A stretch of DNA of 64,000 nucleotides, taken from an uncultured Gammaproteobacteria bacterium. Its GTDB lineage: Bacteria > Pseudomonadota > Gammaproteobacteria > DRLM01. Positions 13,994-16,179 of this stretch are shown here, piece by piece. The notes under the pieces were generated by a model that worked only from the letters and a program-made list of their open reading frames with translations, searched no databases and had not been told where the DNA came from. Position 1 is the stretch's first letter; the number at the start of each line of letters is the position of its first letter. The DNA lies in the NCBI GenBank assembly GCA_963761035.1, contig CAVXFH010000002.1, forward strand, positions 1,738,915 through 1,802,914, given 5' to 3'. Both the position numbers and the translations under genes were made by a program.

Positions 13994-14731
13994 TTATACG
14001 GCTTCGCGAATGTCTTGCGCGTTGTCGAAACGGGCGCTTATTCCCAGCAGTCGCGCTTCTTGCAACAGGGCATGAAGCTTGGGTTGCCGGTGCGAGACAT
14101 GGGCGCTGAGCTTTTTATAACCGGCCTCGATGTCCCCCGCGCATACAACCGGACCGGCCTGGTAATAACTGCCCCAACTACGTCCTTGGTCGGGCAGACG
14201 CTTGGGATCGGGCGAGGCGATGGCAATGGGTTTCAAACCCAGGCGCTGGAAGGCGTTGAACAGCGGTTTGACGGCAGTGAACAGCACCCAGCGATAACCG
14301 GCGGCATGCAACAACATGGTGGTCGCCGCGATTACCCACCGCGCCTCTCCCGGTCCGGCAAGGGCAAGGTTGCCCACTTCCACCAAGTCTCGGCGCTCGA
14401 CGGTTTGCCGGACACCGGCCGCGATCGCCGCCTCTACGGGTTGATCAAGGTACTGTTCGGAGAACAGCGGCTTCACCATGCCGTCACGATAGCCAACCAC
14501 GGCGCGAATTTGATCCGCGCAGGTGAATGCTGTGAGCTTGGGGTAAAACGCATTAAGTTCGGCGCCATAGGCCTGGTGGAAAGCGGTGCGAATGAACTGT
14601 TCCAGCATGCCGCGCTTGACATCATGTTGATCGCAGAAGTGGGCATTCACGGTTTCTTGCAACTCCGTGAGGAGGGGTTGCACGCCCGCGACGACGCAGG
14701 CGTTGTGTGGGAGTTCGATGGTGTTGCGCAT
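13994..14731 (-). CDS. thermostable-hemolysin (T_hemolysin/PF12261-like) family protein, probable N-acyltransferase-fold enzyme
   Basis: 245 aa. Assigned from recalled family pattern and its recurrent neighbourhood with an AMP-ligase plus HO-like redox enzyme. First gene of an apparent operon. Needs HMM confirmation. Confidence 0.45.
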   Translation of the reverse strand: MRNTIELPHNACVVAGVQPLLTELQETVNAHFCDQHDVKRGMLEQFIRTAFHQAYGAELNAFYPKLTAFTCADQIRAVVGYRDGMVKPLFSEQYLDQPVEAAIAAGVRQTVERRDLVEVGNLALAGPGEARWVIAATTMLLHAAGYRWVLFTAVKPLFNAFQRLGLKPIAIASPDPKRLPDQGRSWGSYYQAGPVVCAGDIEAGYKKLSAHVSHRQPKLHALLQEARLLGISARFDNAQDIREAV

Positions 14732-14782
14732 ATTTGGTACCTGGGCTAATCCACTTCACGTCAGAATGGCGAACAAGGATAA

Positions 14783-14798
14783 TGCCAGCTTCGTGCCA
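14783..14798 (-). promoter_or_regulatory. sigma54 (-24/-12) promoter, copy 1: TGGCACG-N4-TGGCA on the minus strand
   Basis: Reverse complement reads CTGGCACGAAGCTGGCAT. GG-N10-GC spacing is exact. About 50 bp upstream of the hemolysin-like gene start at 14731. Confidence 0.65.
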
Positions 14799-14903
14799 GT
14801 TTTATATATTATTGTATTTAATAAACTTAATTATAAAATACGGGTATTTCCCAATGGTAGTGGATTGCAGTGCGCAAAAATTGTATGAACTATTTTGCAC
14901 CCC
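14784..14903. repeat. ~115 bp regulatory repeat, copy 1 (sigma54 promoter + AT-rich spacer + conserved upstream palindrome TGGATTGCAGTGCGCAAAAATTGTATG at 14863..14889)
   Basis: About 80% identical to 15510..15627. Contains TTGC-N5-GCAA dyad symmetry ~100 bp upstream of the -24/-12 element. Confidence 0.8.
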
Positions 14904-14964
14904 GGATGGGACATCAGACAGCGGAGTGGGGGGCTTCGCAGATGCGGTTGTTTCCACGCGCAAG

Positions 14965-15405
14965 TTATATGTCAACGGCCCGGGGTTTAACGGTGAATTC
15001 GCCGTGCATACCTAGCATGTGATGACCGTTGATGTTACAAAAATAGACATAATGTCCCGGCCCCAGGGTTACCGACATGATTTTGCTACCGCCGGGATTG
15101 ATATCTTCGGCCGCGACAATTTTGTGAAGCATTGATGAATCTTCATCGATTTTTCCGTCCGATTCGAGCGGCAATTTACTCAGTGATAACTCCGTCTTTG
15201 CGATGAAGAATTCATGGGTGAGGTCCGAAGAATCATTTTTGACGATGAATCGCACTCTGCCGGCATGGATACTGTCCGATGAGAGTTGCATCGCATAGTC
15301 GGTCATAGTGATAGCGATGGTTTGTGTGCCAGCTTCGGCGCCGGCGGGTAATCCCGCAAGACCTATGCTTACCATCAAAGCGAATTTGAAAAATCGACGA
15401 TACAT
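14965..15405 (-). CDS. cupredoxin (type-1 copper, plastocyanin/azurin-like) periplasmic protein
   Basis: Signal peptide; His...Cys-x-n-His-x-x-x-x-Met pattern (HEFF.....YVYFCNINGHHMLGMHGEF). Confidence 0.7.
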   Translation of the reverse strand: MYRRFFKFALMVSIGLAGLPAGAEAGTQTIAITMTDYAMQLSSDSIHAGRVRFIVKNDSSDLTHEFFIAKTELSLSKLPLESDGKIDEDSSMLHKIVAAEDINPGGSKIMSVTLGPGHYVYFCNINGHHMLGMHGEFTVKPRAVDI

Positions 15406-15508
15406 AGCAGTTGCTCCGCTGTGGCTCCATTTGGCATCCGAAATCGCCGCTGCGCACCTTGATAACGTTGTAAAGCGCCAGAGGGTACGTTGTAGTAAAG
15501 TAAAACAA

Positions 15509-15524
15509 AGCCAGCTTCGTGCCA
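15509..15524 (-). promoter_or_regulatory. sigma54 (-24/-12) promoter, copy 2: TGGCACG-N4-TGGCT on the minus strand
   Basis: Reverse complement CTGGCACGAAGCTGGCT, ~100 bp upstream of the cupredoxin start (15405). Confidence 0.6.
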
Positions 15525-15627
15525 GTTTTATATATGGTTGTATTTGTTAAGCTTAATTATAGAATACCCGCATTTTCCGGTCGCGTTGGATTGCGGTGCG
15601 CAAAAATTGTATGCAGGCGTTTGCGCC
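15510..15627. repeat. ~115 bp regulatory repeat, copy 2 (upstream palindrome TGGATTGCGGTGCGCAAAAATTGTATG at 15587..15613)
   Basis: Paralogous to 14784..14903. Confidence 0.8.
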
Positions 15628-15675
15628 CTCGGCAGCAAAGCAGGCCGAGGTCGCGCGCGTGGGGATGATGATGGT

Positions 15676-16179
15676 TTAGTCGGATGCGTGATCGTCGTTG
15701 TTGCACAGCCTTTCCACGCCCTCGCGTTGCGAAGGGGGGACGGAGATGGATAGTACTAGCTTGACCCTGGCATCGATACGACAGGAGGCGATATAACCGA
15801 TGGCCCCGGGTGTCTTCGCCACGAACTGCAATACCGCTTCCTGTGAGTTGAGGACATAGGGTGGCATGATGCCGTGAAAATAGCGTTGGTTCCAATAGTT
15901 CTGAAGTTGTTGGGTGTTCTTGTTATAAATGCTGTCCGCCAAGGCGCGGCGCAGAGGATGGTCCGGCGGCAGGTTGACCGGAACGAAACTCTGTCCGTGC
16001 TTATCGAGGAAGATCTTCTTCAGATAGATGTCGCGCAAGAGGGTCGCATCGATCTGCAAGGCCGGAGCATCCGTGGCGACGATGACGGCGATTTCATCCC
16101 TGGCCGATACCGCGCCGCATACCAGCAAGCCCAGCAGCACCGCGGCAAGTCGCATTGACGGTCGAAAGGTGTGAGGCAT
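15676..16179 (-). CDS. small periplasmic binding-fold protein (phosphate/phosphonate-binding-like PBP domain)
   Basis: 167 aa. Signal peptide; the IAVIV...LRDIY.GK...W pattern is typical of the small PBP-like domains found beside sensor kinases. Confidence 0.5.
   Translation of the reverse strand: MPHTFRPSMRLAAVLLGLLVCGAVSARDEIAVIVATDAPALQIDATLLRDIYLKKIFLDKHGQSFVPVNLPPDHPLRRALADSIYNKNTQQLQNYWNQRYFHGIMPPYVLNSQEAVLQFVAKTPGAIGYIASCRIDARVKLVLSISVPPSQREGVERLCNNDDHASD

Follow-up and report, generated by a model that had tools for sequence, protein, structure and literature searches.

Within a 64,000-nucleotide stretch of DNA from an uncultured Gammaproteobacteria bacterium (GenBank assembly GCA_963761035.1, contig CAVXFH010000002.1, positions 1,738,915 to 1,802,914; hereafter the window, in which position 1 is the first letter), we identified two copies of an intergenic cassette, one in front of a cupredoxin gene and the other in front of an operon that opens with a gene of the T_hemolysin family. 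We consider it likely, on comparative sequence evidence, that both copies are complete sigma-54 promoter units that depend on an activator and that the unit has been duplicated around the inserted cupredoxin gene. The repeat search returned the pair as the single clear direct repeat of the region (14781-14902 and 15507-15628), with 80% identity over 122 nucleotides (nt) and a distance of 726 nt from start to start. The copies and the elements recognised within them are as follows.

14781-14902, minus strand: cassette copy A, upstream of the T_hemolysin operon; defined by the direct repeat, the alignment with copy B and the orthologous single cassettes of relatives
15507-15628, minus strand: cassette copy B, upstream of the cupredoxin gene; defined by the direct repeat and orthologous to the upstream copy of locus L116 (82%)
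14783-14798, minus strand: sigma-54 type promoter A, TGGCACGAAGCTGGCA (GG-N10-GC), an exact pattern match; predicted start at about 14772, with a 5' untranslated region (UTR) of about 41 nt
15509-15524, minus strand: sigma-54 type promoter B, TGGCACGAAGCTGGCT, an exact pattern match; predicted start at about 15498, with a 5' UTR of about 93 nt
14865-14898, minus strand: putative upstream activator block A, GCAAAAT-N6-TACAATTTTTGCGCACTGCAA, whose core dyad TTGC-N5-GCAA is centred at about -100; from the motif search, the matrix and dyad-axis scan and the likeness to the AtoC operator
15591-15624, minus strand: putative upstream activator block B, core TACAATTTTTGCGCACCGCAA, with one substitution in the dyad spacer; from the motif search
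14805-14817, minus strand: position of the family-conserved ATCAA-N5-TA, which resembles a site of integration host factor (IHF; compare WATCAA-N4-TTR); from the promoter-anchored profile, the window having the weaker version ATACAATAATATA

Read on the minus strand, each copy runs from the conserved upstream block through a 66-nt AT-rich spacer to the element TGGCACGAAGCTGGC(A/T), and the G+C content of the spacer is 23-35%, against 58% for the window. In the alignment of the two copies, the block reads ...GCAAA-N-CATACAATTTTTGCGCAC(T/C)GCAATCCA, and the likeness ends directly downstream of the -12 element; the two 5' UTRs are therefore unrelated. A previous reading of this DNA from its letters alone (the sequence-only reading) had noticed the duplicated cassette at 14784-14903 and 15510-15627. 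The duplication is real, with the limits listed above, and copy B does precede the cupredoxin gene and copy A the T_hemolysin gene, as had been proposed. The 27-bp block that it described as perfectly conserved is so except at the R position, which the reading itself had marked. This 27-mer, TGGATTGC(A/G)GTGCGCAAAAATTGTATG, occurs in the window at 14861-14887 and 15587-15613 and at no other place, even when up to 3 mismatches are allowed (0 occurrences expected), and the search of the window for further copies of the block gave none beyond one 2-mismatch match in a coding region (4127-4140), which is at chance level.

The promoter elements were evaluated against shuffled sequences. Apart from promoters A and B, no exact match to TGGCAC-N5-TKGCW occurs in the 64 kb; the shuffles lead one to expect 0.21, and two matches were reached in one of 100 shuffles; when one mismatch is allowed, the five matches found in the window are not above chance (4.9 expected). 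The search for sigma-70 promoters gave three weak matches, with 2.7 expected. The start sites predicted by the -24/-12 convention differ from the sequence-only reading for copy A, which it had placed near 14762 and not 14772, and lie close to its position of about 15500 for copy B; the centre of the dyad is about 100 nt upstream of each predicted start. The proposal of sigma-54 promoters with exact GG-N10-GC spacing is backed by these pattern statistics, by the conservation in relatives described below and by the presence in the window of the gene for sigma-54 itself:

48655-50181, plus strand: rpoN (sigma-54), with Pfam Sigma54_AID, Sigma54_CBD and Sigma54_DBD all present

This gene lies about 33 kb from the cassette in a canonical lptB-rpoN-hpf-ptsN cluster (47836-51050).

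The conservation of the cassette was studied in loci found by protein similarity and in loci found by DNA pattern. Three of the former (L004, L005 and L006, with T_hemolysin proteins 67-74% identical to that of the window) have the same gene order, no cupredoxin gene and one cassette at the equivalent position. We took the 18 specified bases that had shown no variation up to that point (TACANTTNTTGCGCACNGCAA) and scanned 185,579 species genomes with them, which gave 23 matches, one per genome; by our estimate, a pattern with 18 fixed positions would be met about 17 times by chance over 2 x 596 Gb. Twelve of the 23 belong to Thiogranum, Chromatiaceae, Thiobacillaceae and other gamma- and betaproteobacterial metagenome-assembled genomes, and all 12 are situated between a gene for a protein of about 160 amino acids (aa) and the T_hemolysin gene, with GG-N10-GC located 88 nt past the core start; the other 11, from unrelated phyla, lack all of these genes as well as the promoter. 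The sequence-only reading had called for a search for further genomic copies of the block; these results indicate that it is not a ubiquitous repeat and that in related genomes it occurs once per genome and is specific to this operon.

For an unbiased set, 80 metagenome loci were chosen solely because they encode a T_hemolysin homologue (76% down to 41% identical). Among the 73 of these with enough upstream sequence, 60 were cassette-positive by our scoring rule. The distance from core start to promoter was determined in 66 cassettes (the positive loci of the unbiased set together with the protein-found loci) and was 76 nt in two, 77 nt in one, which is a spurious weak match, 86 nt in two, 87 nt in 13, 88 nt in 41 and 89 nt in seven; GG-N10-GC is thus found 86-89 nt from the block start in 63 of the 66, even where the T_hemolysin proteins share as little as about 45% identity. 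Three conserved islands stand out in the profile of about 60 distinct sequences, namely the block, ATCAA-N5-TA and TGGCAcg.a.cT.GC, between which there is no sequence conservation; TGGCA and GC are near 2 bits in this profile of protein-selected loci. A spacer of fixed length and free sequence between conserved islands is what looping that depends on the face of the helix would predict, unlike a mobile element or an RNA. Natural spacing variants occur in L054 and L056, in which the sigma-54 element is 76 nt past the core start as compared with 88, about one helical turn shorter, and they are consistent with a face-of-helix constraint. Two loci depart from the spacing or sequence rule: L081 (about 175-500) has about 265 extra nt between the block and a perfect TGGCACGCCGCTGGCT, and L098 has upstream of T_hemolysin a degenerate block, GCATTTTTTGCAGC, followed by TGGCCCAAGGGTTGCA.

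Within the block, the dyad-axis scan located the strongest symmetry axis of the family matrix at core +14, which corresponds to TTGC-N5-GCAA at about -100 from the predicted start, so that the dyad noticed in the sequence-only reading is also the most symmetric part of the conserved block. The same matrix shows that the five central bases, GCACT, are conserved as strongly as the arms of the dyad, and that conservation extends asymmetrically beyond the dyad (-3 to +7 of the core) and also covers a GCAA(A) element 13 nt upstream. In the profile of about 60 cassettes, ATCAA-N5-TA is conserved 7-18 nt upstream of TGGCA; that it might be an IHF site is something we infer from the motif.

Two genes transcribed divergently from the operon provide the candidate regulator, which the sequence-only reading had also singled out.

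17535-19370, plus strand: dCache/HAMP sensor kinase, divergent from the operon (Pfam/NCBIfam)
19370-20740, plus strand: NtrC-type sigma-54 activator with Response_reg, Sigma54_activat (AAA+) and HTH_8 (Fis-type helix-turn-helix)

In loci with enough flanking sequence, cassette and kinase were both present in 26 of 26 cassette-positive cases; no locus had the cassette without the kinase, and four had neither. These four are the most distant T_hemolysin homologues and also lack the porin-like gene and the gene for the protein of about 160 aa. Locus L098 is kinase-positive and was scored cassette-negative by rule, and inspection shows the degenerate cassette mentioned above. The activator is 81-88% identical to that of the window in L005-L008 and L023, where the neighbouring genes reach 60-75%, and this higher conservation would fit a conserved DNA-binding specificity. 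It is 46% identical over its full length to Escherichia coli AtoC, and the best NCBIfam models for the pair are AtoC and AtoS, below cutoff; by these comparisons, the activator is to be regarded as a homologue of AtoC and not as its orthologue. The atoC-atoD intergenic region of E. coli carries the palindrome GCTATGCAGAAATTTGCACA|GTGCGCAATTTTCTGCATAGC, which is the AtoC site verified by experiment and lies upstream of the sigma-54 dependent promoter of atoDAEB (PMC3118216), and the centre of this site, TTGCACAGTGCGCAA, differs from the TTGCAGTGCGCAA of the window (plus strand, 14865-14877) by a 2-nt indel only. Strict co-occurrence and an AtoC-like operator make the adjacent NtrC-type regulator the best candidate, and the comparative evidence supports the view that the cupredoxin gene and the operon would be under one type of activator site.

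Two further strings lie close to the kinase gene: a GG-N10-GC string, TGGTATTTTTCGTGCG, at 17476-17491 (minus strand), upstream of the porin-like gene, and a palindrome, TTGCGCAA, at 17535-17542, at the start of the kinase gene. We considered whether they form a third regulated promoter before the porin-like gene and rejected this as a family feature for poor recurrence in relatives. The former recurs only in L003 and, as a variant, in L043, L045, L047 and L050, and the latter is unique to the window; both are probably outside the conserved control system.

The second cassette is restricted to loci in which a cupredoxin gene sits between the gene for the protein of about 160 aa and T_hemolysin, that is, the window, L003 (T_hemolysin 86% and cupredoxin 61% identical; two cassettes) and L118 (63% and 54%; two cassettes). 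The gene concerned is the following.

14965-15405, minus strand: cupredoxin gene (Pfam Cupredoxin_1 and Copper-bind, blue copper proteins of the PDB, translation); the translation has a signal peptide followed by the type-1 copper ligands H64, C122, H127 or H128, and M132

In L116, a contig of 960 nt, the cupredoxin is 76% identical and the upstream copy is 82% identical to copy B of the window, and the contig ends before the position of a second copy. Neither a cupredoxin gene nor a second cassette was found in the 80 protein-selected loci or in the 12 genome loci; the single-copy state is the commonest and probably ancestral. The possibility that the cassette already stood in front of cupredoxin genes elsewhere and was brought in by recombination was rejected on the evidence of four standalone cupredoxin homologues (L030-L033), which have no such block or promoter in their unrelated contexts; the cupredoxin gene therefore appears to have taken a copy of the control unit of the operon, and not to have brought one. 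The 5' UTRs of the cupredoxin gene are homologous among the window, L003 and L116, which indicates a single insertion event for these three. As an observation on the gene itself, the cupredoxin diverges much faster than its neighbours, with 61% identity between the window and L003 (4492-4932), where the flanking proteins reach 80-92%.

The age of the duplication was judged from the spacers alone. The spacers of paralogous copies share 76% identity in the window, against 58% for L003 and 42% for L118, and shuffled spacers give 50 +/- 5%; the copies of the window are 56-64% identical to their positional orthologues in L003, which is lower than the 76% between themselves. The duplication is common to diverged lineages and the spacers have drifted, and the event is therefore old; later, in the lineage of the window and L116, the copies were probably made alike by gene conversion or by a second duplication of the unit. 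A neighbour-joining tree of the cassette copies, which are too short for more, resolves only a grouping of copies A and B of the window with L116. The sequence-only reading had taken the duplication for a recent regulatory rewiring; this part of it is not sustained, since the two-cassette layout is also present in L003 and L118 with spacers near random, and homogenisation or re-duplication fits better than a young first event. In L003 and L118, both copies retain the block, the spacing of 87-90 nt and GG-N10-GC despite their diverged spacers, which argues for selection on, and function of, both.

From these elements and their distribution we infer how the unit may work. The periplasmic dCache domain would sense a signal, and the kinase would phosphorylate the NtrC-type activator. 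RNA polymerase with sigma-54 would meanwhile sit as a closed complex at the -24/-12 element TGGCAC-N5-TGGC(A/T), and the phosphorylated activator would bind the block about 100 nt upstream through the dyad TTGC-GCACT-GCAA and TGCA-type half-sites on its upstream side. The AT-rich spacer of fixed length would then bend, perhaps with IHF at ATCAA-N5-TA, and loop the activator onto the polymerase; ATP hydrolysis would open the promoter, and transcripts would begin near 14772 and 15498. In the lineage of the window, a gene for a periplasmic type-1 copper protein was inserted between the gene for the protein of about 160 aa and T_hemolysin, and the unit now stands on both sides of it, so that cupredoxin and operon would answer one signal from separate promoters. 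No intrinsic terminator was predicted 3' of the cupredoxin gene, and the terminator-like matches in the cassettes are the promoter strings themselves; read-through from promoter B is therefore possible, and promoter B may also feed the operon.

It is important to consider the points that weigh against this interpretation. In both copies, the -12 element is TGGC and not the consensus TTGC, and the copies of the window fit WATCAA-N4-TTR poorly, with ATACAA... instead of WATCAA. The activator scores 504.6 bits against the cutoff of 714 of the AtoC equivalog NF008469, the block is not a 40-bp palindrome as in the AtoC operator, and the likeness to that operator rests on one stretch of 13-15 nt. 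In the 12 loci retrieved by DNA pattern, the search itself forces the core columns to be invariant, and the claim of conservation therefore rests on the protein-selected set. Finally, the scan of the source genome covered the 64-kb window, and other activators or sites may be present elsewhere in the source genome. This last point leads to an explanation in which the sigma-54 promoters are real but the block is bound by another protein, be it an enhancer-binding protein encoded elsewhere, a repressor or a co-regulator. The genome outside the window may encode such binders, and the conserved asymmetric positions (-3 to +7 of the core) beyond the dyad could host a second factor; however, wherever the flank is long enough the block is strictly accompanied by the linked kinase/activator module, the activator is more conserved than its neighbours, and the operator centre is like that of AtoC, the closest characterised homologue of the activator, all of which makes this explanation unlikely.

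We regard it as less probable still that one copy only is functional, the other being a decaying by-product of the insertion, with the downstream genes expressed by read-through. Promoter B alone could in principle serve all the genes, the stretch from the cupredoxin gene to copy A having no predicted terminator, and copy B has both a T to C change in the dyad spacer and a diverged upstream half-site (GCAAACGCC), but the retention of block, spacing and GG-N10-GC in the copies of L003 and L118, at spacer identities of 58% and 42%, is the signature of selection on both. A repeat of about 120 nt in intergenic DNA might also be a small mobile or repetitive element (of the miniature inverted-repeat transposable element or repetitive extragenic palindromic type) or a structured RNA, with promoter-like strings arising by chance. 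We give this hardly any credence: 12 genomes each have a single copy, always at the same syntenic position, and the window holds the two only, the conservation is limited to two islands around a variable spacer of fixed length, and the repeat search reported no terminal inverted repeats. A known RNA family or structured leader was likewise rejected, with no Rfam match at E <= 1, and the folding energies of both 5' UTRs and of the 3' flank of the cupredoxin gene were no better than those of shuffles. The reading that two functional sigma-54 units flank the cupredoxin gene could be carried one step further, although we consider the step doubtful: the 122-nt direct repeats, not merely parallel switches, would make the cupredoxin gene a recombination-labile module, lost by crossover between copies that gene conversion keeps alike, and hence allow accessory genes to be plugged reversibly into a local sigma-54 regulon. 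If so, loss by crossover would explain the patchy distribution of cupredoxin, present in the window, L003 and L118 but absent from L004, L034 and other closer relatives, and gene conversion would explain why the spacers of the window are 76% identical to each other against 56-64% to the L003 orthologues. As an added layer, the copper protein may be a functional partner of the diiron-enzyme pathway encoded by the operon, whose substrate or product the dCache kinase may sense.

The genes around the cassettes, other than those given above, are as follows.

16184-17317, minus strand: porin-like protein (Pfam/NCBIfam; synteny)
15676-16179, minus strand: protein of about 160 aa with no family match, preceding the cassette (synteny)
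9606-14731, minus strand: predicted regulated operon from T_hemolysin to VTT/DedA (overlapping stop and start codons, conserved synteny)
13994-14731, minus strand: T_hemolysin family, PF12261 (Pfam)
12502-13992, minus strand: AMP-ligase (Pfam/NCBIfam)
11868-12515, minus strand: heme-oxygenase-like diiron enzyme, HDO, PF14518 (Pfam)
11169-11819, minus strand: TPR protein (Pfam/NCBIfam)
10275-11087, minus strand: SDR (Pfam/NCBIfam)
9606-10235, minus strand: VTT/DedA membrane protein (Pfam/NCBIfam)

The porin-like gene and that for the protein of about 160 aa precede the cassette in all relatives that carry it, and the gene order porin-like, ~160-aa protein, T_hemolysin, AMP-ligase, HDO, TPR and SDR is conserved in about 70 loci of sulfur-oxidiser-type Gamma- and Betaproteobacteria. 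No relative of T_hemolysin was found by sequence in the PDB, and no literature was found on the gene cluster or on PF12261. In several relatives (L005-L006, L010 and similar loci), the T_hemolysin 5' UTR contains CCTGGC...GCCAGG (for example, AGTCCTGGCAGC...AAAGGCGCCAGGATG), which could pair across the ribosome-binding site and the start codon; the 41-nt leader of the window does not have it and forms no stable fold. Elsewhere in the window, 26926-30321 encodes an unusual large surface- or carbohydrate-related protein of 1131 aa with four DUF7402 repeats and PIG-L deacetylase, F5/8 type C and bacterial Ig domains, and the sole tRNA is a tRNA-Gly (CCC) at 4289-4362 (minus strand).

An uncharacterised AtoC-like two-component system, common among Gamma- and Betaproteobacteria of the sulfur-oxidiser type, is thus given a predicted operator and promoter and a strict rule for the spacing between them, and the promoter is an entry point to an unstudied conserved operon and its inducing signal. 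The results also offer a natural example of a regulon enlarged by copying a whole enhancer-promoter unit and not by extension of an operon. The tight spacing over a wide divergence, the clean co-occurrence of operator and regulator, and the growth of the regulon by tandem duplication of the enhancer-promoter unit around a copper protein are the noteworthy aspects, and none of them challenges the present understanding of the mechanism of sigma-54 regulation.

The closest known system is AtoS/AtoC with atoDAEB in E. coli, which resembles ours in that a kinase and an NtrC-type activator adjoin their target operon, whose sigma-54 promoter has an upstream site and an AT-rich stretch between site and promoter. 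However, in the AtoC operator two inverted 20-bp sites form a palindrome of 40 bp (PMC3118216). By our own count, this 40-nt perfect-type palindrome is centred near -129, whereas the window has a 13-nt dyad in an asymmetric block of about 35 nt near -100; the outer GCTATGCAG arms are absent here, and only the central 13-15 nt correspond. The sensor of the kinase is here a periplasmic dCache domain, the targets (T_hemolysin, AMP-ligase, HDO, TPR, SDR and cupredoxin) are unrelated to short-chain fatty-acid catabolism, and the unit is duplicated. The cassette unit is accordingly not to be taken as an orthologue of the ato system, since it differs in operator architecture and in target genes and its activator falls below the equivalog cutoff. 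The regulons of bacterial enhancer-binding proteins are usually local, and the promoters that they serve at glnAp2, nifH and Pu, like the cassette, combine GG-N10-GC at -24/-12 with an activator site about 100 nt further upstream, contain an IHF-like motif in the AT-rich DNA that lies between, and have a regulator gene close by; what sets the cassette apart is an unusually tight core-to-promoter distance (86-89 nt in 63 of 66) and an IHF-like element placed right next to the -24 element (about -45 to -33) and not midway. These proteins have been reviewed (PMC4987338), and the role of IHF between enhancer and promoter has been summarised (PMC7962754).

With respect to the kind of target, the ZraS and ZraR models of NCBIfam rank second for the kinase and near the top for the activator. 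ZraSR of enterobacteria is a sigma-54 two-component system whose targets include a small periplasmic metal-binding protein, ZraP, but ZraP is not a cupredoxin, and the type of sensor domain and the operator differ. With respect to the duplication, the nifH promoter regions reiterated on rhizobial symbiotic plasmids, where a whole sigma-54 promoter with its upstream activator sequence has been copied before other genes, are a precedent, although those copies are dispersed on the plasmid and NifA-dependent, and here the two copies stand in tandem at a distance of 726 nt, with just one inserted gene between them. In its predicted mode of action, the cassette is like the AtoSC/atoDAEB type or another enhancer-promoter of the NtrC family, a well-conserved but ordinary switch.

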